A stretch of 64,000 nt of DNA from the NCBI GenBank assembly GCA_046331245.1, contig JAXLRH010000002.1:402587-466586 (forward strand), written 5' to 3'. Of the stretch, positions 5,256-53,052 are shown piece after piece. The notes beneath the pieces were generated by a model. It did no database searches. It was not told the origin of the DNA and was given only the letters and a program-made list of their open reading frames with translations. The stretch comes from Acidimicrobiales bacterium (lineage in GTDB: Bacteria > Actinomycetota > Acidimicrobiia > Acidimicrobiales > Microtrichaceae). The position numbers and the translations under genes were made by a program. Each line of letters starts with the position of its first letter. Positions within the stretch are counted from its first letter, which is position 1.

Positions 5256-6152
5256 ATGGACATCGCCATCACCGGATCGAGCGGACTCATCGGCACCCGC
5301 CTCGTCGCCGCGCTCGAGTCCGAGGGCCATCGCGTCCTGCGCATCGTGCGCCGGGCGAGCGATCGGCCGACCGCCGACGAGGCCATCTGGGACCCGTCGG
5401 CGGGCGCCATCGACGCCACCGCGCTCGAGGGCCTCGACGCCGTGGTCCACCTCGCCGGCGAGGGCATCGCCGAGCGCCGGTGGACGCCGGAGCAGAAGGC
5501 CCGCATCAGCGACAGCCGCTCCGCCGGCACCACCCTCATCGCGAACACCCTCGCCTCGCTCACCCGGCCGCCGCGCCGCCTCCTGTCGGGGTCGGCCATC
5601 GGGATCTACGGCGACACGGCCGCCCGCCCCACCGACGAGTCCTCCCCGGTGGGCACCGGGTTCCTCCCCGACGTCTGCCTCGCCTGGGAGGCCGCGGCCC
5701 AACCGGCGATCGACGCCGGCATCTCCACCGCCTTCCTCCGCACCGGCATCGTCCTCTCGACCGACGGCGGCGCGCTGGCCAAGCAGCTGCCGTTCTTCAA
5801 GGCCGGCCTCGGCGGCCGGAGCGGCAGCGGGCGCCAGTACCAGAGCTGGATCGCCATCGACGACGAGATCGCCTCCATCGTCTGGCTGCTGAGCTCCGAC
5901 ATCACCGGGCCCGTCAACCTCACGGCGCCGAACCCGGTCACGAACGCCGAGTTCGCCAAGGCGCTCGGCGCCGCGCTGCACCGCCCCACCACCGTCATCC
6001 CGATGATCGGTCCGAGGCTGCTGTACGGCCGGGAGCTGGCCGATACGCTCCTGCTCGAGAGCCAGCGCATCCTGCCGGCGAAGCTCGAGTCGGGTGGCTA
6101 CCAGTTCCGCTTCCCCGAACTCGACGCCGCCCTCGCCCACGTGCTGCGCTGA
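5256..6152 (+). CDS. TIGR01777/YfcH-family NAD-dependent epimerase/dehydratase (with DUF1731 C-terminal region)
   Basis: 298 aa. Rossmann motif ITGSSGLIG, then the conserved YfcH-like body and tail. Confidence 0.8.
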   Translation: MDIAITGSSGLIGTRLVAALESEGHRVLRIVRRASDRPTADEAIWDPSAGAIDATALEGLDAVVHLAGEGIAERRWTPEQKARISDSRSAGTTLIANTLASLTRPPRRLLSGSAIGIYGDTAARPTDESSPVGTGFLPDVCLAWEAAAQPAIDAGISTAFLRTGIVLSTDGGALAKQLPFFKAGLGGRSGSGRQYQSWIAIDDEIASIVWLLSSDITGPVNLTAPNPVTNAEFAKALGAALHRPTTVIPMIGPRLLYGRELADTLLLESQRILPAKLESGGYQFRFPELDAALAHVLR

Positions 6153-6189
6153 TCTCGCCGTCCCCCAGCCACCGCCCGGAAGTCGATCC

Positions 6190-6654
6190 ATGCCCCCTCG
6201 TCAGGTCTCCGTCACCCGCGTCATCGCCGCCACGCCCGAAGCGATCTTCCGCATCGTCGCCGACGCCTCCTTCCACCACGTCATCGACGGGTCCGGCACG
6301 GTGCGCGGCACGTCCGGCACACCGGAGCCCCTCGCGCTCGGCTCGCGCTTCGCCATGAAGATGAAGCTCGGCGTGCCGTACGTGATCGGCAGCACGGTCG
6401 TGGAGTTCGAACAGGACCGCCGCATCGCGTGGGCGCACATCGGCAAGCACCGCTGGCGCTACGAGCTCACCCCGCTCGAGCCGGCGGAGGACGGCTCGCC
6501 GCGAACCGAGGTCACCGAGACGTTCGACTGGTCGACGTCGGTGTTCCCGAAGGCCATCGAGCTCGCCGGCTACCCCAAGCGCCACGTCCCCAACATGACC
6601 CGCACGCTCGAGCGCCTCGACGCCTTCGTGCAGAACCGGACGAGCGCCCTGTGA
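6190..6654 (+). CDS. SRPBCC-family (polyketide cyclase/START-like) protein
   Basis: Inner start MPPRQVSVTRVIAATPEAIFRIVAD..., about 154 aa, typical SRPBCC layout. The ORF-table frame begins at 6094. Confidence 0.7.
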   Translation: MPPRQVSVTRVIAATPEAIFRIVADASFHHVIDGSGTVRGTSGTPEPLALGSRFAMKMKLGVPYVIGSTVVEFEQDRRIAWAHIGKHRWRYELTPLEPAEDGSPRTEVTETFDWSTSVFPKAIELAGYPKRHVPNMTRTLERLDAFVQNRTSAL

Positions 6655-7292
6655 GCGACCAGGTCGGCGTCGCCGCGTTCGACTTCGACGGCACGATCAC
6701 CGAGCGCGACACGCTGCTCGGCTTCCTGGAGTTCGTCGGCGGACGTCGCCGGGTCGCCTCGGCGCTCGCCGCGCAGTCGCCCACGTTGGCGAGGGGCCTC
6801 CGCTCCAGCGAGGCGCGCAACACGGCCAAGGAGCGGGTGCTGGGCCAGGTGCTCCGCGGCCGCGCCGTCGACGACGTCACCGACGCCGGGATCCGCTACG
6901 CGGCCACGCTGCCCACCGGGTTCCGCCGGGAGACCCTGCAGCACATCGCTTCGCACCGCGCCGCCGATCACCGCCTCGTGATCGTGAGCGCGTCGCTCGT
7001 GTACTACCTCCGCCCGATCGCCGCCGACCTCGGCTTCGAGGACGTGATCGCGGTGGAGATGTCGGTCGGCGACGACGACCGGCTCACCGGCACCCTCACC
7101 ACCCCGAACGTGCGCCGGGAGCACAAGGCGACCCGGCTGCAAGCCTGGCTCGACGAGCGCCTGGATGGAGCGACGCCCGAGCTGTGGGCCTACGGCGACA
7201 GCTCGGGCGACGATCATCTCCTCGCGATGGCCGACCACGCGACGTGGATCGGCCGGCGGGCCCGTCGTGGGCCCGCCGTGTCGAACGACTGA
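6651..7292 (+). CDS. HAD-IB family hydrolase (phosphoserine-phosphatase-like)
   Basis: GTG start overlapping the upstream stop (GTGA). VAAFDFDGTIT motif I, then the HAD motifs ...YGDSSGD. Confidence 0.75.
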   Translation: MSDQVGVAAFDFDGTITERDTLLGFLEFVGGRRRVASALAAQSPTLARGLRSSEARNTAKERVLGQVLRGRAVDDVTDAGIRYAATLPTGFRRETLQHIASHRAADHRLVIVSASLVYYLRPIAADLGFEDVIAVEMSVGDDDRLTGTLTTPNVRREHKATRLQAWLDERLDGATPELWAYGDSSGDDHLLAMADHATWIGRRARRGPAVSND

Positions 7293-33070: not shown

Positions 33071-33076
33071 GGTCGC

Positions 33077-33106
33077 CTATTTCCCCTACGCGCGTGAGGG
33101 AAATAG
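33077..33106. promoter_or_regulatory. AT-rich inverted repeat CTATTTCCC-N12-GGGAAATAG between flotillin stop and sufC start
   Basis: The perfect 9-bp arms are unusually AT-rich for this genome. It lies 7 nt after the flotillin stop and 10 nt before the sufC ATG. Confidence 0.4.
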
Positions 33107-33116
33107 ACTCTCGGCC

Positions 33117-33883
<767 letters not shown>

Positions 33884-33887
<4 letters not shown>

Positions 33888-35149
33888 GCGACACCGAGAC
33901 GGTCGACCCGATCGACGCGGCCACGGTGAAGGCCGACTTCCCCCTCCTCGTGAACACGAAGGCGGGCGCCGGCCACGAGCGGCCCATCGTCTACCTCGAC
34001 TCGGCGGCCACCGCGCAGAAGCCGCAGGTCGTCATCGACGCCCTCACCGACTACTACGAGACGACCAACGCCAACGTCGCACGCGGCGTGTACGAGCTCG
34101 CCGAGGCGTCCACCAACGCCATGGAGCGCGCCCGCCGCAAGGTGGCGGCGTTCATCAAGGCGCCCAGCGCGGACGAGGTGATCTTCACCAAGAACGCCAC
34201 CGAGAGCCTCAACCTCGTCGCCCACAGCTGGGGGCGTGCGAACCTCGGCGCCGGTGACGCCATCGTGCTCACCCAGCTCGAGCACCACGCGAACATCGTC
34301 CCCTGGCACATCCTCGCCGCCGATCTCGGCTTCGAGATCCGCTGGATCCCCGTCGACGACACGGGCCAGCTCGACCTGACCGACCTCGACCGGCTGCTCG
34401 ACGGCGCCAAGCTCGTCGGCCTGTCGGCCATGTCGAACGTGCTGGGCACGCTCACGCCGGTGCGCCACATCACCGACGCCGCCCACGCGGCCGGCGCCGT
34501 CGTCTCGGTCGACGCGTGTCAGTTCGTGCCCCACCTGCCCACCGACGTGGTGGCGATGGGCGCCGACTTCCTCTCGTTCTCGGCCCACAAGATGTGCGGG
34601 CCCACCGGCGTCGGCGTGCTCTGGGGCCGGGCCGAGCTGCTCGACGCGATGCCGCCGTTCCTCGGCGGCGGCGGCATGATCACGAACGTCACCCAGGAGG
34701 GGTTCACGTCCGCGGCGCTCCCCCACAAGTTCGAGGCGGGCACGCCGCCGATCGCCGAGACGGTCGGCCTCGGCGCCGCCGTCGACTACCTGTCGGCGCT
34801 CGGCATGGACGCGGTGCGCGAGCACGAGGTGCGGCTCACGTCGTACGCGCTGCGCACCCTGTCGGGCCGCTTCGGCGACAAGCTCACGATCCACGGCCCG
34901 TCGGAGCCGGCGCTCCGGGGCGGCGTCTTCTCGATGGTGCTCGACGGCGTGCACCCGCACGACCTCAGCCAGATCCTCGACGAGCACGGGGTGTGCGTCC
35001 GGGCCGGCCACCACTGCGCCAAGCCGCTCATGAAAGTTCTCGGCGTCGGCGCGACTGCGCGAGCATCGGTGTACATCTACAACGACGAGCACGACGTCGA
35101 CGCACTTGCCGACTCACTCGACGCCGCGGCGTCGTTCTTCTCGTTCTGA
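33884..35149 (+). CDS. sufS: cysteine desulfurase SufS
   Basis: ATGA overlap with sufC. PLP-lysine context FSAHKMCGPTG. Active Cys in HHCA. Confidence 0.92.
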
Positions 35150-35173
35150 ACGCATTCGAAGTAGGGAGTTCCA

Positions 35174-35674
35174 ATGGCCGGTCTCGAAGATCTGTACCGC
35201 GAGATCATCCTCGATCACTACCGCTCGCCCCGTAACCGCGGCGAGCTCGAGACCCCTCCCGCGACGCGCACCGAGGGCTTCAACCCCCTGTGTGGCGACG
35301 AGATCGTGGTGTACCTCCAGCTCGGCGCCGGCGAGGGTGACGACCGGGTCATCGAGGCCATCCGCATCGGTGGGCAGGGCTGCTCGATCAGCCAGTCGTC
35401 GGCGTCGATGATGTCGTCGGCGGTGCAGGGCAAGACCATCGGCGAGGCGCACGAGGTGATGCGTGCCTTCAAGGCCATGATGTCCATCCACGAGAGCTCG
35501 CTCGACGACAGCGCGCCCGAGGAGCCCACACCCGAGGAGATCGCCGACCTCAAGCTCGGCGATCTCGAGGCGCTGCGCGGCGTGGTGAAGTTCCCCGTCC
35601 GCATCAAGTGCGCCACCCTCTCGTGGAACACGCTCGACCAGGGCATCAAGGAAGCGGTCTCCCCCGGCGAGTAA
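35174..35674 (+). CDS. sufU: Fe-S scaffold/sulfur-transfer protein SufU (NifU-like)
   Basis: NPLCGDE...GQGCSIS...C motifs. Confidence 0.88.
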   Translation: MAGLEDLYREIILDHYRSPRNRGELETPPATRTEGFNPLCGDEIVVYLQLGAGEGDDRVIEAIRIGGQGCSISQSSASMMSSAVQGKTIGEAHEVMRAFKAMMSIHESSLDDSAPEEPTPEEIADLKLGDLEALRGVVKFPVRIKCATLSWNTLDQGIKEAVSPGE

Positions 35675-44178: not shown

Positions 44179-44193
44179 CCAACCCCCCCCACC

Positions 44194-44246
44194 CCGGTTT
44201 CGGGGGTTCGTTGTGCGCGAGGGTGCACAACGAACCCCGAAACCGG
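44194..44246. repeat. palindromic element copy A: CCGGTTTCGGGGGTTCGTTGTG-cgcgagggtg-CACAACGAACCCCGAAACCGG
   Basis: 21/22-bp near-perfect inverted arms with a 10-nt spacer, between convergent genes. Flanked by a C8 run upstream and (CGGGAA)3 downstream. Confidence 0.7.
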
Positions 44247-44279
44247 AGAAATGGGGAGCGGGAACGGGAACGGGCGGCG

Positions 44280-45099: not shown

Positions 45100-45912
45100 T
45101 CAGAGGCCGAGCGGATCGGCGAAGGGATCGGCGAACGGGTCGTCGGCGGCAGCCACGGCAGCCGGCGCGTCGTCCCCTCCGGCCTCCTCCACCCACCGGG
45201 CGTAGCCGCTCTCCTCCAGCGTCTCGGCGAGCTCCGGCCCGCCCGACTCGAGGATGCGGCCCTTGGCGAAGATGTGCACCACGTCGGCGTGCAGCTTCTC
45301 GAGGAGCCGGTTGTAGTGGGTGACCGCGATCACGCCGAGGCCCCATTCCGAGGTGGCCTCCTCGACGCGCTGCGACACCTGCGCGAGCGCGTCCACGTCG
45401 AGGCCGGAGTCGATCTCGTCGAGGATCGCGAACTTCGGGCGGAGCACGGCGAGCTGCAGGGTCTCGTTGCGCTTCTTCTCGCCACCGGAGAAGTCGACGT
45501 TGAGGGAACGGCTGAGGAACGCCTCGTCGAGACCGACGCGCTTCGCCTCGGCCCGGAGGTCGGCATCGAAGGTCGTGCCGGAGCGGTGCTGGGCGGCGAG
45601 CGACTCGGTGAGCACGGACTGGAGCGACACGCCGGGCACCTCGGTCGGGTACTGCATGCCGAGGAAGAGACCGGCCTGCGCCCGCTCGTGGGGCGCCAGC
45701 GCTGCGAGATCCACGCCGTCGAGCAGCATCGAGCCGCCGGTGACGACATAGCCGGGCCGGCCCATGAGCACGTGGCTGAGGGTGGACTTGCCCGAGCCGT
45801 TCGGGCCCATGATCGCGTGCACCTCGCCGCTGCGGACCGTGAGGTCGACGCCGGTGAGGATCGGGCGGCCCGCGACCTCGGCGGTGAGACCGGAGATGAC
45901 GAGCTCGCTCAC
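45100..45912 (-). CDS. sufC: Fe-S cluster assembly ATPase SufC (copy 2)
   Basis: GTG start VSELVISGLTAEV. EVHAIMGPNGSGKSTL, FSGGEKKRNETLQ. GTGA overlap with the Rieske gene. Confidence 0.88.
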   Translation of the reverse strand: MSELVISGLTAEVAGRPILTGVDLTVRSGEVHAIMGPNGSGKSTLSHVLMGRPGYVVTGGSMLLDGVDLAALAPHERAQAGLFLGMQYPTEVPGVSLQSVLTESLAAQHRSGTTFDADLRAEAKRVGLDEAFLSRSLNVDFSGGEKKRNETLQLAVLRPKFAILDEIDSGLDVDALAQVSQRVEEATSEWGLGVIAVTHYNRLLEKLHADVVHIFAKGRILESGGPELAETLEESGYARWVEEAGGDDAPAAVAAADDPFADPFADPLGL

Positions 45913-46238
45913 GACACCACCACCGACACGTCGTCGCCGTCGACGACGACCTCGTACACCGCGACCGGACGCGTCGCCGGCAGCGACGTCGCCTCGCCGG
46001 TCTCGAGGTCGAACCCCGAGCCGTGCTTCGGGCACTCCAGCGTGCCCATGTCGTCGTCCACCTCGCCCTCCGACAACGAGACGTCCTGGTGGCTGCAGCG
46101 GTCGGACAGCGCGTACACCTGGTCGCCGAGGCGCACCACGGCGAGCTCACGGTCGCCGATCACGAACTTGCGGACGCCGCCGTCGACGAGGTCGTCGATC
46201 GTGCACAGCGGGTGCCGGACTCCTGGGGAGACGCTCAT
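45909..46238 (-). CDS. Rieske [2Fe-2S] ferredoxin-like protein
   Basis: CSHQ...CPKHG Rieske boxes, 109 aa. ATGA overlap with sufD. GGAGG RBS. Confidence 0.85.
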   Translation of the reverse strand: MSVSPGVRHPLCTIDDLVDGGVRKFVIGDRELAVVRLGDQVYALSDRCSHQDVSLSEGEVDDDMGTLECPKHGSGFDLETGEATSLPATRPVAVYEVVVDGDDVSVVVS

Positions 46239-47524
46239 CGGGTTCCTCCGAGCTTGGCGGCGATCAACGGACGGACGAGCTCGGCCACGGACGGCACCGA
46301 CACGGCGTCGAGCACCTCCTCGAAGAAACCGTTGACGACGAGCCGCTCGGCCACCTCGGGCGGGACGCCGCGGCTCTCGAGGTAGAAGCGCTGGTCCTCG
46401 TCGATGGGACCGACGGCGGTCGCGTGTGCACAGCGGACGTCGTTGTGGTTGATCTCGAGGTTGGGCACCGACTCGGCCCAGGCGTCGTCGGACAACTTGA
46501 TGACCCGGTTGGTCTGCGTGGCGTTGGAACCACGACCCTCGTGGTCGACCCGGATCATGCCGGTGTAGACGGCGTGGGCACGGTCGTCGAGCGCCCCCTT
46601 GAACAGGAGCTCCGACGTGGTGTCGCGGGCCTCGTGCGTCTGGAACGTGCGGAGGTCGTGCATCTGGTCGTCGTCGCCGAGGTAGAGCGCCGAGAGGCGG
46701 CCCGTGGCCCCCCGCCCGACGAGGCGGCAGTCGAAGCGGTTGCGGGCGTAGGCGCCACCGAGCGCGACGTGGGCCAGCCGAACCGTCGCCTCCTGGGCGA
46801 CGGTGGCGGACAGCGCGCCGAGCTGGTTGGTCGCGCCGCCGAGCGCGTTGACGGTGGTCACGCCGACCCGGGCGGCGGGGGCCACTGCGATCTCGACGCG
46901 GGGCACGACGGTGGCCTCGACGTCGGTCGAGGTCGTCCACTCGACGACGTCGAACTGCGAGTTCTCGCCGGCCACGATCACGAGCCGGTTGAGCACGAGC
47001 GCCTGATCGGCGTCGACGACACCGATCACCTGGAACGGGAGGTCGACCACCACGTTGCGCGGCACGGACAGGAGCAGGGGGTCGACGCCGAACGCGACGT
47101 TGAGCTCGGTGAACGCGTCCACGACGGCGACGTGCTCGCTGCTGCCGACGGTGGCGGCGACCTCGGACCCGCCGAGCTCGTCGGCGGACTCCGACAGGAG
47201 GCCGAAGCGGACGCCGAGCTCGGCGATCTCGGGCGCGAGCTCGGCGCTCACGAGGTGCCCGTTGTGGTGCACGAGGCGGCCGGCGTACTTGCCGAGACCG
47301 TCCGACAGCGTGAGCGCCCCGTCGGGAACGACCTCGGACGTCGCCGGCACGGTGAAGCGGTCGAGCTCGATGTCGCCGACGCGGCTGTAGCGCCACTCCT
47401 CGAGCGAGGGATCGGGCAGCGGCGTCACCGCGAAGCGCTCGGCGGCGGCGACGCGCTGCGCCGTCAGCCAGGCAGGGCCGGGCAGGGAGCTGGCACGTGT
47501 GGGGGTGAATGCGTCGGCAGTCAC
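46235..47524 (-). CDS. sufD: Fe-S cluster assembly protein SufD
   Basis: 429 aa, SufD beta-helix with the conserved C-terminal region. Confidence 0.88.
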   Translation of the reverse strand: MTADAFTPTRASSLPGPAWLTAQRVAAAERFAVTPLPDPSLEEWRYSRVGDIELDRFTVPATSEVVPDGALTLSDGLGKYAGRLVHHNGHLVSAELAPEIAELGVRFGLLSESADELGGSEVAATVGSSEHVAVVDAFTELNVAFGVDPLLLSVPRNVVVDLPFQVIGVVDADQALVLNRLVIVAGENSQFDVVEWTTSTDVEATVVPRVEIAVAPAARVGVTTVNALGGATNQLGALSATVAQEATVRLAHVALGGAYARNRFDCRLVGRGATGRLSALYLGDDDQMHDLRTFQTHEARDTTSELLFKGALDDRAHAVYTGMIRVDHEGRGSNATQTNRVIKLSDDAWAESVPNLEINHNDVRCAHATAVGPIDEDQRFYLESRGVPPEVAERLVVNGFFEEVLDAVSVPSVAELVRPLIAAKLGGTR

Positions 47525-47600
47525 GACAGGGTTCCTGGGGGTCGAGCGGGGCCGTCGAATAAGTCCGACGGCGATAGGAGAAATCCTAGTGGGACTGGAC

Positions 47601-48053
47601 TCACTCGGGCCAAGCGTCGAGGATGGCCGTGAACTCGTCGGCGGTGAGCGCCACCGGGCTCGACACCCGCGGCGCCCGCACGATCTCGCACCGGCCGAAC
47701 CGCTCGTCGGCCACGAGCTCGCGCAGCCGCACCGGAGCGTCGAGCAGGTCGAGATCGAGCCCCACCCACGGCTGCTCCGACTCGTTGCGGCTCGACGGCT
47801 GCACGTAGGGCTCGCTCGACACCTCGCCGATCCCCCACACGCCCGTCGTCGGGGCGTTGCGGCCCCCGGTCACCCAGAGCACGCACGGGTGGCCCGGGTG
47901 CACCAGGTCGACGCGGTAGTTGTCGACCATCGGCCACGCGTCGATGGGCTCGCCGGCGCGGATCGCGCCGACCACGTCCCAGACGACCGGATTGGCCTTG
48001 AACAGCCACGCCGCGACCTCGGTGCCGTCCCGCAACCGGGCGACGGGTTCCAT
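47601..48053 (-). CDS. EVE (PUA-like) domain protein
   Basis: 150 aa with EVE-fold hallmarks (WLFKANP..., conserved W/Y positions). Confidence 0.75.
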   Translation of the reverse strand: MEPVARLRDGTEVAAWLFKANPVVWDVVGAIRAGEPIDAWPMVDNYRVDLVHPGHPCVLWVTGGRNAPTTGVWGIGEVSSEPYVQPSSRNESEQPWVGLDLDLLDAPVRLRELVADERFGRCEIVRAPRVSSPVALTADEFTAILDAWPE

Positions 48054-48066
48054 CGACGCGATGACG

Positions 48067-48447
48067 TCAGCCCCGACGGAACCAGCGACGCCAGCCGCGC
48101 TGGTCGCCGCCCGGGCGGCCGGGCCGGAACCCCGACGTGTCGGGACGGGTGGCGTCCACCTCGGCCCGCGTGCGCTCGACGGCGGCGTTCACGATGTTCT
48201 CCGCCTCGTCGAGGAGGTCGCCGATGGACGGATCGACCCCGACGCTCGCGGGCTCGGCCGGCGTCGGCGGAGCGATCAGCGAACCGTGCGACCAGTTCAC
48301 GTCCGCGAGGCGCGGCTGATAGGCGGGGCAGTTGTCGGGGCAGCGCCACGGCGCCTCCGGGGCGAGGTCGAGGTCGCATTTCCGCACGGACTCACCCGTG
48401 GGATAGGTGCGGCTCTCGTAGAACTTGCATCCCTCGCGCATCGGCAT
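48067..48447 (-). CDS. small Cys4 protein of unknown function
   Basis: MPMREGCKFYESRTYPTGESVRKCDLDLAPEAPWRCPDNCPAY carries a C-x16-C-x11-C-x3-C pattern. Ends 13 nt upstream of the EVE gene. Confidence 0.55.
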   Translation of the reverse strand: MPMREGCKFYESRTYPTGESVRKCDLDLAPEAPWRCPDNCPAYQPRLADVNWSHGSLIAPPTPAEPASVGVDPSIGDLLDEAENIVNAAVERTRAEVDATRPDTSGFRPGRPGGDQRGWRRWFRRG

Positions 48448-48469
48448 CGAGCCATTGTAGGTTTGCGCG

Positions 48470-48853
48470 ATGCCCTCCCTCGGATCGCCCCGCTACGTCC
48501 TGTTCACCAACTTCCGGAGGAACGGGACGCGGGTGTCGACGCCGGTGTGGTTCGCGCCGCACGGTGACACGTGGGTGTTCTCGACCGCGCCGGATGCCGG
48601 CAAGGTGAAGCGGCTCCGCAACAACCCGGCGGCCGAGATCGCCGCCAGCGACGTCCGGGGTCGCGTGAAGGAGGGCTCCCCCACCTTCACCGGCACGGCA
48701 CGACTGCTCGACGCCACCGAGACCGCTGCGGCCGAGCGCGCGCTGGCCGCGAAGTACGGACTCCAGTGGAAGGCGCTGCGCCTCAGCGAGCGGGTGCGCA
48801 ACCTCGTCGGCATCAAGGCCGACGCCGCCTACATCTCGGTCACGCTGGACTGA
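48470..48853 (+). CDS. PPOX-class (pyridoxamine-5'-phosphate-oxidase fold) probable F420-dependent enzyme
   Basis: 127-aa split-barrel PPOX pattern (YVLFTNFRRNGTRVSTPVWF...). Confidence 0.7.
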   Translation: MPSLGSPRYVLFTNFRRNGTRVSTPVWFAPHGDTWVFSTAPDAGKVKRLRNNPAAEIAASDVRGRVKEGSPTFTGTARLLDATETAAAERALAAKYGLQWKALRLSERVRNLVGIKADAAYISVTLD

Positions 48854-48857
48854 GCGC

Positions 48858-48881
48858 GAGGCTCAGCCGACGCTCCCCTCC
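48858..48881. repeat. tandem duplicate of the sufB 3' terminus (encodes -EGSVG-stop again)
   Basis: GAGGCTCAGCCGACGCTCCCCTCC matches CAGGCTCAGCCCACGCTGCCTTCC at the true sufB end about 58 nt away, about 20/23 identical. Confidence 0.45.
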
Positions 48882-48920
48882 ACCCGCCCACGCCACCCCA
48901 CACGGAGTGGCTTCGCAGGC

Positions 48921-50318
48921 TCAGCCCACGCTGCCTTCCATCTGAAGCTCGATCAACCGGCTCCACTCCACCGCGTACTCCATGGGGAGTGTGCGGGTGA
49001 TCGGCTCGATGAAGCCGTTCACCACCATCGACATGGCCTGCTCCTCGGAGAGGCCACGGCTCTGCAGGTAGAACAGCTGCTCGTCGGCCACCTTGGAGAC
49101 GGTGGCCTCGTGGCCGATCACCGCGTCCTTCGAGCCCACCTCCATGTAGGGGTAGGTGTCCGAGATCGACTCGTCGTCGAGGATCAGGGCGTCGCACTGC
49201 ACGTGTGAGCGGCAGCCGTACGCACCGTCCTCGATGTGGACGAGGCCGCGGTACGACGTGCGGCCGCCGTCCTTGCTGATCGACTTCGACACGACCTTCG
49301 ACGTCGTCTCGGGCGCGGCGTGCACCATCTTGGCGCCCGTGTCCTGGTGCTGGCCGGGGCCGGCGTAGGCGACGGAGAGCACCTCGCCCGAGGCCTTCGG
49401 TCCGACGAGCGTGCAGCCCGGGTATTTCATCGTGAGGCGGCTGCCGATGTTGCCGTCGATCCACTCCATGTGGCCCTCGGCCTCCACCCGCGCACGCTTG
49501 GTGACGAGGTTGAACACGTTGCTCGACCAGTTCTGGATGGTCGTGTACGTGACACGCGCCGACGGCTTCACCACGATCTCGACCACGGCCGAGTGCAGCG
49601 AGTCCGACGTGTACACCGGGGCGGAGCACCCTTCGATGTAGTGCACCTCGGAGCCCTCGTCAGCGATGATGAGCGTCCGCTCGAACTGGCCCATGTTCTC
49701 CTGGTTGATCCGGAAGTAGGCCTGCAACGGCATCGGCACCTTCACGCCCGGCGGGACGTAGATGAACGAGCCGCCCGACCACACGGCCGTGTTGAGCGAG
49801 CTGAACTTGTTGTCGTTGAGCGGGATGACCGTGCCGAAGTACTGCTTCACGAGCTCGGGGTACTCGCGGAGCGCCGTGTCCATGTCGCAGAAGATGATGC
49901 CGAGCTCGGCGAGGTCCTCGCGGTTGCGGTGGAACACCACCTCGCTCTCGAACTGCGCGGTCACGCCGGCGAGGTACTTCCGCTCCGCCTCCGGGATGCC
50001 GAGCTTCTCGTAGGTCGACTTGATGGCGTCGGGCAGGTCGTCCCAGCTGTCGACCTGATGATCGGTGGGCTTGATGTAGTAGTAGATGTCGTCGAAGTAG
50101 ATCTCCGACATGTCGCCGCCCCAGCGCGGCATCGGCCGCTTCTCGAAGGCGGTGAGCGACTTGAGGCGACGCTTCAGCATCCACTCGGGCTCGTTCTTCA
50201 TCTGCGACATCTCGCGGACCAACGCCTCGTCAAGGCCCTTCTTGGGCTTGAAGACGTAGTCGACGTCGTCGTTCCAGCCGAGCTGGTACTTGCTGAGGTC
50301 GAGATCGATGCTGGTCAT
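48921..50318 (-). CDS. sufB: Fe-S cluster assembly protein SufB
   Basis: Inner start [15 protein letters not shown]. The remainder is colinear with SufB. The ORF-table N-terminal 47 codons lie in the leader/repeat region. Confidence 0.92.
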
Positions 50319-50434
50319 GGCACTCCAATCGGGGGGAGAGCCGACGCCTCGCCGGGGCCGGGAATATCTCCTACGTGCATAGTAACAACCCCAACCCGCG
50401 CACGACCACCGGTGTTCCCGCCCACCTCTCTCGC

Positions 50435-50486
50435 GGTTTTTGGGGTTCGTTGTGTTCACCCCTCGCGCACAACGAACCCCAAAACC
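50435..50486. repeat. palindromic element copy B (inverted relative to A): GGTTTTTGGGGTTCGTTGTG-ttcacccctcgcg-CACAACGAACCCCAAAACC
   Basis: 19/20-bp arms. Its reverse complement is about 90% identical to copy A including the spacer. It lies in the sufB leader, about 115 nt upstream of the sufB ATG, just after the upstream gene stop. Confidence 0.7.
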
Positions 50487-50521
50487 CGAGGAGGAGGAGT
50501 GAGGAGTGAGGACGAGGAGTG
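50487..50521. repeat. purine-rich heptad tract (GAGGAGT-like x5)
   Basis: GAGGAGGAGGAGTGAGGAGTGAGGACGAGGAGTG between palindrome B and the stop of the gamma-carbonic-anhydrase-like gene. Confidence 0.5.
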
Positions 50522-51040
50522 TCAGTCGACGCGTCGGAGCTCGAGCTTGTAGCGGGCGGCGCGATCGACGTAGCTCTGCACGCCGAGGTCGAACCAGCCG
50601 GGCGTCACGGCGTTCTCGCGGATGGTGATCGGCACGCCGAGCGCCATGGCGAGGGGCGGGATCACCTTGCGGTTGGGCACCATCGCGTTGGCGCCGATGA
50701 CCGCCTCGGCGCCCACCACCACCTCGTGCAGCACCACCGAGCCCGAGCCGACGAGCGCCTTGTCCTCGATCGTGCAGCCCTCGAGGTGGACGTTGTGGCC
50801 CACCGTCACCTCGTTGCCGATGCGGGTGGGATGGAAGAACGTGGTGTGCACGATCGTGCCGTCCTGCACCGACGACCGCTCGCCGACGTAGATGAAGCCG
50901 TCGTCGCCGCGGAGCACCGCCGTGGGCCAGATCGACGAGTGGGCGCCGATCACGACGGAGCCGATGATCACCGCGTCGGGGTGCACGTAGGCGTCGGGAT
51001 GGATGTCGGGAACCTGGTCACCCAGGGCGTAGATCGGCAC
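50522..51040 (-). CDS. gamma-carbonic-anhydrase/hexapeptide-repeat family protein (PaaY/CaiE-like)
   Basis: Left-handed beta-helix hexapeptide repeats, 172 aa. Confidence 0.85.
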
Positions 51041-51047
51041 GGTGGCG

Positions 51048-51551
51048 TCAGTCGACCGGGCCGAGCTTGCCGTAGCTGCCCTTGAAGAACAGCAGCGGTC
51101 CGTGCTCCGAGTTGTCGACGCCGAGGCCCCGCACCCGCCCGATCACGATGTCGTGGTCACCGCCGTCGTAGACGTGCTCGAGCGTGCAGTCGATGTGGGC
51201 GATGCAACCGTCGAGCTTGGGGCCGCCGGTGGCGACGGCCGGCGTCCAGTCGAGGCCCTCGAACTTGTCGTCCATCTTCGAGGAGAACTGCCCCGACACC
51301 GGCACCTGCGCGTCGGACAGTACGTTCACCACGAAGTGACCGGCGCCCTTGATGAGCGCCCACGAGCTCGACTGCTTGCCGACGCAGAACCCGACGAGGG
51401 GCGGGTCGAGCGACACCGAGAAGAACGAGCCCACTGCGAGGCCGGCCGGCTTGCCATCGGTGACCGCGGCGACGACGGTGACGCCCGTCGGGAAGTGGCC
51501 GAGCACCTTGCGGAACTCGGCGGAGTCGATGGCGATGGCTTCGTCGGACAC
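51048..51551 (-). CDS. flavin reductase (NAD(P)H:flavin oxidoreductase, HpaC-like)
   Basis: FRKVLGHFPTGVTVV...split-barrel flavin reductase domain. Confidence 0.85.
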   Translation of the reverse strand: MSDEAIAIDSAEFRKVLGHFPTGVTVVAAVTDGKPAGLAVGSFFSVSLDPPLVGFCVGKQSSSWALIKGAGHFVVNVLSDAQVPVSGQFSSKMDDKFEGLDWTPAVATGGPKLDGCIAHIDCTLEHVYDGGDHDIVIGRVRGLGVDNSEHGPLLFFKGSYGKLGPVD

Positions 51552-51587
51552 GGGTCCCCCTGGTCGGTGCTGGATGACGTGCGGAGG

Positions 51588-52064
51588 CTACTGCTCCGCC
51601 GGCCGGGCCTTCGCCGCCAGCTCGGCGCGACGCGCCTCCCAGCCGGCGATCATCGTGCCGAACGCGGCGGGGTTGTAGATGTCCTCCTCGTAGGAGAACT
51701 GGTGCTGGCCCGCGTACTTCAGGAGCGTGAAGTTGTACTCCTGGTGGATCGAGCCGTCGCCCGGATCGCTCATGCGGTTCCACACCTGGCAGATGATCCA
51801 GCCGCGGTCCTCGTCGATGATGTGCCACTCGATCGGGAAGTGCGGCATCTCGTTGCCGGGGTAGGTGTTCGCACACACCTCGGTGATCCAGCGCAGCACC
51901 GCGGCGCGGCCGCCGATCTCGCCGTACATGTGCTCCTTGTAGGTGCAGTCCTCGGTGAAGCAGTTCGCCCACTCGGTCCAGTCGCCGGTGGTGCCACCCT
52001 TCAGCGCGGCGGCCTTGTAGGCGTCGAACGCGTTCTCCAGCTCGTCGCGACTCCAGCGTCCCAT
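51588..52064 (-). CDS. NTF2-like/SnoaL-like protein
   Basis: 158 aa, SnoaL-type pattern, Trp/Tyr-rich. Confidence 0.75.
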   Translation of the reverse strand: MGRWSRDELENAFDAYKAAALKGGTTGDWTEWANCFTEDCTYKEHMYGEIGGRAAVLRWITEVCANTYPGNEMPHFPIEWHIIDEDRGWIICQVWNRMSDPGDGSIHQEYNFTLLKYAGQHQFSYEEDIYNPAAFGTMIAGWEARRAELAAKARPAEQ

Positions 52065-52110
52065 GTGATCCCCCCGATGATGTCGACCGCGGTCGCCGTC
52101 GATCCGGCCG

Positions 52111-53052
52111 TCAGCATGACAGATCGAGCTCGAGCCCCTCGGCCGCGGCGATCACCGACGGACCACGGCGCAGCGCCGACATCGCGGCGGCGTGCTCGCA
52201 CAGCGAGTCGACCGTGTCGTCGTCGTGGGACGGGTCGTGGTGGTACAGCGCCAGCTGCTTGACGCCGGCCTGCGCCGCCACCTCGATCGCGTACTCGGTG
52301 GTGCAGTGGCCCCAGTCGAACCGCTCGGCGAACTCGGGCGCGGTGTACTGCGCGTCGTGGATCAGGAGGTCGACGCCGTCGCACAGCTCCAGCACCGAAT
52401 CGGCCACGACCGTCGACTGGCAGCCGGGCTGCTGGTGGTCGCTCACGTACGCCAGCGACGCACCGCCGACGTCGATGCGGAAGCCGAGCGTGGGTCCGAC
52501 GTGGGGCACGTCGCGTGACGTCACGATCGCCGGGCCGAGCTCGATCGGGTCGCCCGTCGCCTCCTCGAACGTGGTGGTGCCGGCCAGCTGCTCGAGCGTC
52601 ACCGGGAAGTACGGCGGGCACAGGAACTGGTGGAACGCCTCCTCGAGCGTGCGATCCTCCTGCGGCGGGCCGATGATGTGCATCGACGACTCGGCTCGGT
52701 GCAGCGGGGGGAAGAACGGCAGGCCCTGCACGTGGTCCCAGTGGAGGTGGCTCACGAGCGCCGTGGCGCGGAACGGACGGGAGCCGCCGGCGGCGCACAC
52801 GTCGGTGCCCCAGAAGCGGAGGCCGGTGCCCAGATCGAGGACGATCGGATCGAACCCGTCGCCGGTGACGACGACGCAGGCGGTGTTCCCACCGATGCGC
52901 TGGTTCGACTCACACGAGCATGGCGTCGAACCGCGAACCCCGTAGAACTTGACCCTCAGCGCACCAGCCCCTTTGTGCTGACTTCCCCCGTGACAGTTGG
53001 TGACCTTACGACGTTCATCTCGTGTCGAGATAGCCGTTGTGACCGATTTCAT
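52111..53052 (-). CDS. MBL-fold metallo-hydrolase
   Basis: HLHWDH motif. The N-terminal about 33 codons are unusually AT-rich and the start is uncertain. Confidence 0.7.
   Translation of the reverse strand: MKSVTTAISTRDERRKVTNCHGGSQHKGAGALRVKFYGVRGSTPCSCESNQRIGGNTACVVVTGDGFDPIVLDLGTGLRFWGTDVCAAGGSRPFRATALVSHLHWDHVQGLPFFPPLHRAESSMHIIGPPQEDRTLEEAFHQFLCPPYFPVTLEQLAGTTTFEEATGDPIELGPAIVTSRDVPHVGPTLGFRIDVGGASLAYVSDHQQPGCQSTVVADSVLELCDGVDLLIHDAQYTAPEFAERFDWGHCTTEYAIEVAAQAGVKQLALYHHDPSHDDDTVDSLCEHAAAMSALRRGPSVIAAAEGLELDLSC

Follow-up and report, generated by a model that had tools for sequence, protein, structure and literature searches.

A conserved four-cysteine protein family encoded among the suf genes of Acidimicrobiia

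SUF is the main, and often essential, iron-sulfur (Fe-S) cluster assembly system of Actinobacteria, and to our knowledge its parts list has been considered nearly complete. Here we describe a small protein with four invariant cysteines, Cys4, whose gene lies between sufB and sufD in a 64-kb stretch of 70% GC (the window) from a metagenome-assembled genome (MAG) of the Acidimicrobiales (contig JAXLRH010000002.1). Cys4 is a new protein family within a known system, for which we found no family model, structure, or paper, and sufB-Cys4-sufD-Rieske-sufC is the common gene order in the sampled Acidimicrobiia. In the window, the interval between sufB and sufD is shared with two other genes, one for a standalone EVE (PUA-like) protein and one for a PPOX-class F420-dependent oxidoreductase (Table 1). 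An initial annotation of the window had proposed that the small Cys4 gene was unrecognised and linked to suf, and the lack of a family model and the class-wide synteny bear this out.

Position of Cys4 among the suf genes

When GTDB species were scanned with one genome each, at least 542 stretches were found to encode a relative of Cys4. From these, 80 loci were taken with 10-kb flanks and the proteins of the window were mapped onto them; gaps between genes are estimates from tblastn alignment offsets. In almost all of the 80, Cys4 is placed between sufB and sufD. The stop codon of Cys4 was found within 201 nt of the start of sufD in 58 of the 80 loci. In three more the distance was ca. 0.6 kb, with EVE alone in between, in six it was 1.9 to 4.9 kb, and in 13 a same-strand downstream sufD was absent from the fetched DNA. 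On the other side, the sufB stop and the Cys4 start were separated by -1 nt in 15 loci, by 27 to 192 nt in 17, and by 0.6 to 9.7 kb in 31, while the fetched DNA of the last 17 held no upstream sufB. Both flanks of Cys4 are therefore insertion hot spots, with up to 9.7 kb of intervening DNA.

The tightest junctions were read directly in one locus (L030), where sufB runs into Cys4 as GGC TAATG CCC ATG, and the end of Cys4 (ACG TGA) overlaps the GTG start of sufD. The resulting pattern, sufB-TAATG-Cys4-GTGA-sufD, implies translational coupling of Cys4 to both sufB and sufD, and the codon overlap between sufB and Cys4 recurs in at least 15 genomes. Divergent members of the family, with 33 to 39% identity, still follow sufB (L084, L085, and L086). 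In five loci without sufB or sufD nearby (L007, L013, L020, L032, and L063), sufS-sufU was located a short distance downstream on the opposite strand. One locus (L084) carries tandem Cys4 paralogues between sufB and sufD (6001-6354 and 6393-6788), one divergent (33% identical to the Cys4 of the window) and the other canonical.

A second sample was anchored on sufD by scanning metagenome contigs with a SufD alignment, giving 80 loci, 60 of which extended 450 nt or more beyond the sufD start on the upstream side. Cys4 was upstream in 47 of these 60, directly adjacent on the same strand in 38 and inverted in three. The Rieske gene was present in every sampled suf locus. Across many genomes, Cys4 thus shows the conserved operonic linkage to sufB, sufD, and sufC that is expected of a SUF component, and the order sufB-Cys4-sufD-Rieske-sufC is probably ancestral. 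The initial annotation had treated the three genes of the window as inserted between sufB and sufD. This does not apply to Cys4, which belongs to the common order of the class and is coupled to both neighbors in many genomes, but it does hold for the PPOX gene, found at this position only in L001 and L002.

The Cys4 protein family

The Cys4 protein of the window is 100% identical to the product of NCBI locus U0Q22_05815. A word-indexed search gave 6,116 homologues, all unnamed or labeled "hypothetical" and none with a Pfam domain, and all organism-labeled relatives came from Acidimicrobiia-type MAGs. An exhaustive hidden Markov model search of 1.84 billion representatives yielded only 274 Cys4 clusters at 50% identity. 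This is a compact family with high sequence conservation. In an alignment of 70 diverse sequences, down to 34% identity, the residues C7, C24, C36, C40, A29, P30, P33, and P37 are invariant, with a cysteine spacing of C-x16-C-x11-C-x3-C. After the near-invariant N-terminal domain of ca. 57 residues (MRExCKxFESRTYxxGExVRKCDLDLAPEAPWRCPxxC, with the motif LAPEAPWRCPxxC) come a Pro-rich stretch that is also conserved (PPTPxEP), a long acidic amphipathic helix (LLDEAEDIVN...), and, at the C terminus, a basic tail (GWKRFFRR). In median identity to the protein of the window, Cys4 (67%) ranks below SufB (82%) and above SufC (60%), Rieske (54%), and SufD (46%); the value for EVE was also 46%.

No relative of Cys4 was found in Pfam, NCBIfam, or the PDB. 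Four members of the family matched no Pfam family even at E ≤ 10, WhiB-like PF02467 and RbpA included, and comparison with ferredoxin, rubredoxin, and zinc-ribbon families gave neither a profile nor a fold match. An assignment to the WhiB-like family was rejected, given the lack of a match to PF02467 and a spacing that is C-x16-C-x11-C-x3-C and not C-x(n)-C-x2-C-x5-C. The AlphaFold2 model built from 25 close sequences reached a predicted local distance difference test score (pLDDT) of 60, and that from the 70-sequence alignment 77. In the literature, we found nothing on the suf operons of Acidimicrobiia or on the Cys4 protein.

Two one-off fusions of the Cys4 domain were also seen, one of 407 aa with an acidic Cys/Asp-rich extension of ca. 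300 aa (P0175) and one of 263 aa with a GGDEF domain (P0125); these may be genuine fusions of a sensor type, or else chimeras produced in assembly.

Operator-like palindrome and predicted Cys4 promoter

A 26-bp palindrome, first noticed upstream of sufD, was modeled with nhmmer and its copies were located in the fetched loci at E ≤ 0.05. The 130 sites included 58 before sufD, 44 before sufB, and 21 before sufC2, a second SufC paralogue 49% identical to sufC. For nearly all copies, the gene that starts ca. 45 to 60 nt further on is sufD, sufB, or sufC2 (or sufS). The consensus of 104 sites is ATTnCyMCTAY-N4-RTAGKRnAAAT, in which CTA and TAG are near-invariant, and a perfect copy occurs in L032 (12326-12355, ATTTCCACTACGCCGGTAGTGGAAAT). 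In the window, copies precede all three suf units, the third of which, sufC2-sufS-sufU, lies ca. 10 kb from sufC and was also found in L016 (14943-17613), L005, L001, and L002. The suf genes of the class are thus split into three putatively operator-controlled units that include two SufC ATPases.

Since the motif matches on both strands, it behaves as a DNA palindrome rather than as an RNA structure. An RNA element in the spacer between EVE and sufD was rejected on the same ground, and because folding there was only modestly better than that of shuffled sequences (z = -2.3); an Rfam search over 44 to 52 kb of the window gave nothing credible. Sites of the regulator SufR are reported to be palindromes flanked by A/T tracts (bioRxiv 10.64898/2025.12.26.696629). 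Their cores are CAAC-N6-GTTG in Synechocystis and Streptomyces and ACACT-N5-TGTGA in M. tuberculosis. The palindrome described here shares this architecture, with a palindromic core, A/T tracts on both sides, and a position upstream of suf start codons. It differs from the known operators in its CTAY-N4-RTAG core, in having a copy at each of the three suf units, and in the lack of an adjacent sufR gene; a crude motif scan of nearby DNA (RGRP plus RRH motifs) detected no SufR-like open reading frame (ORF) in the window or in 166 loci.

Where Cys4 is uncoupled from sufB, a different signal was found. An xANNNT hexamer precedes its ATG or GTG by 6 to 7 nt in 47 of 49 such loci, against a background of 5%. 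In Actinobacteria, a -10 box at that spacing before the start codon is the signature of a leaderless mRNA, which suggests that detached Cys4 genes are transcribed from a promoter of their own as leaderless messages. In the window, PPOX and Cys4 are divergent, and the 22 nt between their start codons (48448-48469) hold overlapping -10-like hexamers, TACAAT for Cys4 and TAGGTT for PPOX, each 6 nt from its own ATG, suggestive of two back-to-back leaderless promoters. A scan of the window for sigma-70 promoters and terminators was uninformative at 70% GC, and neither an operator nor a terminator was found in the interval between Cys4 and EVE.

With a palindrome separating the end of EVE from the start of sufD and a leaderless-type promoter before Cys4, Cys4 and EVE probably form a separate unit in this genome, under a control unlike that of the other suf units, and sufD-Rieske-sufC probably has a controlled promoter of its own, as judged from the predicted sites. 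For the same two reasons, the co-transcription of Cys4 and EVE with sufD that had been suggested initially is doubtful in the window.

Possible role of Cys4

We favor, at about even confidence, the reading that Cys4 is a SUF-dedicated small metalloprotein, specific to Acidimicrobiia-type genomes, that docks on the SufB/SufD scaffold; its metal binding, its docking on SufBD, and its biochemical role are what we infer. The four invariant cysteines would hold a metal center, either an Fe-S cluster or zinc, while the Pro-rich segment and the acidic helix would dock the protein onto the scaffold, where its task as an accessory subunit would be to deliver electrons or handle clusters. Where the genes overlap, synthesis of Cys4 would keep pace with that of SufB and SufD; elsewhere Cys4 would be expressed from a leaderless promoter of its own. 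EVE would be a lineage-specific nucleic-acid-reader gene that came to occupy the Cys4 transcription unit. What points to a SUF subunit is the class-wide linkage, which has outlasted many rearrangements, together with the codon overlaps with both scaffold genes, a conservation that exceeds that of SufC and SufD, the four invariant cysteines, and an extended architecture, as is typical for small subunits whose folding takes place on a partner.

Several known proteins offer a parallel. Like the small SUF and ISC accessory proteins SufA, SufT, SufU/SufE, the Fdx of isc operons, and the Rieske protein of actinobacterial suf operons, Cys4 is a small cysteine-bearing protein encoded in an Fe-S biogenesis operon, and in many genomes its translation is coupled to that of the scaffold genes. 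Unlike them, it has no sequence or fold similarity to any accessory protein, its cysteine spacing is unique, its structure is extended (a knuckle, a Pro-rich linker, an acidic helix, and a basic tail), and it was seen in Acidimicrobiia-type contigs only.

Some observations weigh against a SUF subunit. The predicted TM-score of the Cys4 model was low (0.34), and a fold search with the model matched nothing. Apparent fusions of Cys4 with the SufBD core, which might have spoken for an interaction, were rejected, since the long proteins match fragments of the core only and are probably frameshift artifacts. Cys4 is inverted relative to sufD in three of the Cys4-anchored loci (L043, L065, and L068), and in one, the sole such locus, Cys4 and EVE have no suf gene within 10 kb (L006). 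None of the 130 palindrome sites precedes Cys4, even where Cys4 has its own promoter. Its expression is therefore probably independent of the other suf units, a pattern that fits a sensor or regulator no less than a subunit. Finally, metal binding and contact with SufBCD are read from sequence and synteny.

The main alternative, though an unlikely one, is that Cys4 regulates the suf regulon by sensing Fe-S or redox state, as a functional analogue of small metal-binding transcription factors of Actinobacteria such as the WhiB-like (Wbl) proteins and RbpA. It might even act on the 26-bp palindrome, either by itself or together with a partner that binds DNA. Like Wbl proteins and RbpA, Cys4 is small and actinobacterial, with four candidate metal ligands (all invariant) and a basic C-terminal region, and a stand-alone, constitutive-looking promoter lacking the regulon palindrome would fit such a factor. 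So would its location between two units under predicted operator control, its retention at the locus after sufB and sufD had moved away, and the failure of the motif scan to find a SufR-like ORF. On the other hand, Cys4 has no recognizable DNA-binding domain, and codon overlaps amid structural genes are unusual for a regulator. Moreover, the A/T-flanked palindrome fits the published mode of SufR recognition (bioRxiv 10.64898/2025.12.26.696629), and SufR may be encoded elsewhere. A bolder version of the idea would make Cys4 an Fe-S cluster sensor of a previously unseen fold, controlling or co-controlling the three-promoter suf regulon (sufB; sufD-Rieske-sufC; sufC2-sufS-sufU) through the palindrome and replacing SufR/IscR in Acidimicrobiia, with a co-transcribed EVE adding a nucleic-acid input in Microthrixaceae-like lineages; we regard it as quite improbable.

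We rate just as low the proposal that Cys4 is a zinc-knuckle housekeeping protein with no part in Fe-S assembly, adjacent to suf through inherited gene order. In favor of this, Cys4 has an independent predicted promoter, and both of its flanks have received many unrelated genes. The initial annotation had itself taken an ancestral order with a widely conserved small gene as a sign that there is no link to suf, and this order is formally what we found, but the tight linkage argues for a role in suf. Although the inserted flanking DNA reaches 9.7 kb, Cys4 has kept its place between sufB and sufD or next to sufS-sufU, neutral synteny would not be expected to outlast so much rearrangement, and the overlapping-codon coupling in at least 15 genomes is likewise at odds with mere inheritance.

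EVE and PPOX genes

The EVE gene was found in 8 of the 80 Cys4-anchored loci, in 5 of the 80 sufD-anchored loci, and in L081, with a patchy distribution among close relatives. Wherever present, it directly follows Cys4 on the same strand at ca. 8 to 65 nt, and the two genes persist together in loci lacking sufB and sufD (L006, L007, and L063). Only 44 close homologues of EVE were found, compared with 6,116 for Cys4, with identities of 36 to 73%, and the gene thus evolves fast. Its product scores over the whole EVE domain (PF01878) and gave weak matches to the EVE structures 2GBS (Rpa0253) and 1ZCE (Atu2648), aligning end to end with the former, as expected of a standalone EVE protein. From family knowledge, it would read a modified base through an aromatic pocket (PMC7641849). 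In the EVE census of Bell et al. (2020), standalone EVE genes of Proteobacteria are placed in housekeeping-operon contexts and no suf context is given (PMC7641849). The suf-operon setting reported here, confined to some Microthrixaceae-like lineages, thus differs from those of the census.

A relative of EVE with 47% identity (P0310) closes a gene cluster found in L082 (1583-6444) and L083, its gene overlapping by 4 nt; neither Cys4 nor any suf gene belongs to this cluster. Its partners are a metallophosphatase (Mre11/SbcD-like), an SMC/Rad50-like ATPase, and a NurA-domain protein, which looks like a DNA-end-processing or defense-type context and fits the known nucleic-acid role of the EVE family.

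EVE is a real gene, probably co-transcribed with Cys4, and is best seen from its distribution as an optional, lineage-specific rider rather than a general partner of SUF. The obligate pairing with Cys4 that had been envisaged in the initial annotation is not what the loci show. That Cys4 and EVE form one functional module linking the modification state of nucleic acids to Fe-S assembly is very improbable, since the constant adjacency of EVE to Cys4, kept even without sufB and sufD and in the window unbroken by an operator or terminator, is set against its absence from ca. 90% of Cys4 loci, its fast evolution, its relative in the Mre11/Rad50/NurA-type cluster, and a published census without suf context. 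The idea that the gene after Cys4 is always EVE-like was also rejected, this position being taken by the second Cys4 paralogue in L084 and by an unrelated gene in L085.

The PPOX gene passes the NCBIfam cutoff of TIGR03666 and was found only in the two closest relatives of the window (L001 and L002) among 160 related loci, a distribution that marks it as a recent, local, and apparently unrelated insertion.

Two observations on neighboring methyltransferases can be added. The window encodes an N6/N4 DNA methyltransferase (PF01555; 53140-54576, plus strand) ca. 5 kb from the EVE gene, and in L086 two PF01555-type methyltransferase genes (711-2318) lie just downstream of Cys4, past a 66-aa ORF.

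Gene layout of the window

The family assignments clear curated thresholds for all genes at the locus except Cys4, which matches nothing (Table 1). The three ORFs between sufB and sufD are real genes and not chance ORFs, as indicated by the 6,116 homologues of Cys4 with invariant cysteines and by the scores of EVE and PPOX above curated thresholds. The places and identities first assigned to them agree with the profile matches. The same goes for the spacing of the region, with 13 nt between the Cys4 stop and the EVE start, 1,396 nt (the 1.4 kb given before) between the sufB stop and the sufD start, and a PPOX gene convergent with sufB on the strand opposite to the suf genes. The GC content is flat over the region, and this uniformity gives no sign of recent foreign DNA. 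The next gene past sufC is SIMPL/DUF541.

TABLE 1 Features of the suf region and related sites in the window
Feature	Position	Strand	Evidence or remark
sufB	48921-50318	-	TIGR01980, 713 bits vs cutoff 346; start = ATG at 50318, set by homology
PPOX-class F420-dependent oxidoreductase, Rv2061 family	48470-48853	+	TIGR03666, 122.4 bits vs 84.9; PF01243, 34.4 vs 28.1
Predicted -10 hexamer TACAAT	48454-48459	-	6 nt upstream of Cys4 ATG; predicted promoter of leaderless Cys4(-EVE) mRNA
Cys4 gene, 126 aa	48067-48447	-	C7, C24, C36, C40; no family match
EVE (PUA-like), standalone, 150 aa	47601-48053	-	PF01878, 35.1 bits vs cutoff 23, E 1.5e-8, profile 2-144/145
Palindrome, EVE stop/sufD start interval	47555-47590	-	nhmmer E 4e-5; A/T flanks; right half degenerate in this lineage
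sufD	46235-47524	-	TIGR01981, 229 bits vs cutoff 222; PF01458
Rieske-type [2Fe-2S] ferredoxin, sufD/sufC interval	45909-46244	-	PF00355, E 1.4e-19
sufC	45100-45903	-	TIGR01978, 283 bits vs cutoff 213
Palindrome before sufB	50356-50384	-	ACTATGCACGTAGG core; nhmmer E 0.0096
Palindrome before sufC2	33076-33106	+	TATTTCCCCTACGCGCGTGAGGGAAATA
Third suf unit, sufC2-sufS-sufU	33075-35674	+	sufC2 ATG 33118; sufS 33887-35149; sufU 35174-35674

Other features of the region were noted. Immediately upstream of sufB (50522-53052, minus strand), and in most of the loci L002 to L077, there are conserved genes for a metallo-beta-lactamase-fold protein, a flavin reductase (PF01613), and a hexapeptide-repeat (gamma-carbonic-anhydrase-like) protein. 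SufBCD uses reduced flavin, to which a flavin reductase gene beside sufB could be related. A palindromic hairpin element of ca. 65 to 85 nt (arms GGGGTTCGTTGTG / CACAACGAACCCC) occurs in two copies, at 44186-44249 and 50418-50504, the sole ones in the window, which bracket the entire SIMPL-sufC-Rieske-sufD-EVE-Cys4-PPOX-sufB block. Both are located between gene ends and may be terminators or repetitive extragenic palindromic (REP)-like repeats. In several "Ca. Aldehydirespirator"-type genomes, the match to SufB is broken by ca. 1.1 kb (L029, 8231-9366; L031, 7002-8128; L036, 7060-8195; L047, 1925-3060; and L055, 8160-9292), a size that would be expected for an intein. An intein is known in the SufB of mycobacteria.

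Implications for Fe-S cluster assembly in Acidimicrobiia

Acidimicrobiia are abundant in wastewater, marine sponges, and soils, and few genetic studies have been devoted to them. The main interest of this locus lies in Cys4 alone and in the predicted three-operator architecture, rather than in the pairing with EVE or in the idea of an insertion. The analysis provides a testable regulatory map of suf for the class, with three units under predicted operator control and one gene predicted to be leaderless. An unannotated protein kept in the suf operon across a whole class would point either to an accessory function so far missing from SUF (donation of electrons or iron, cluster hand-off, or sensing, for example) or to a lineage-specific solution to a step of SUF that is still unclear.

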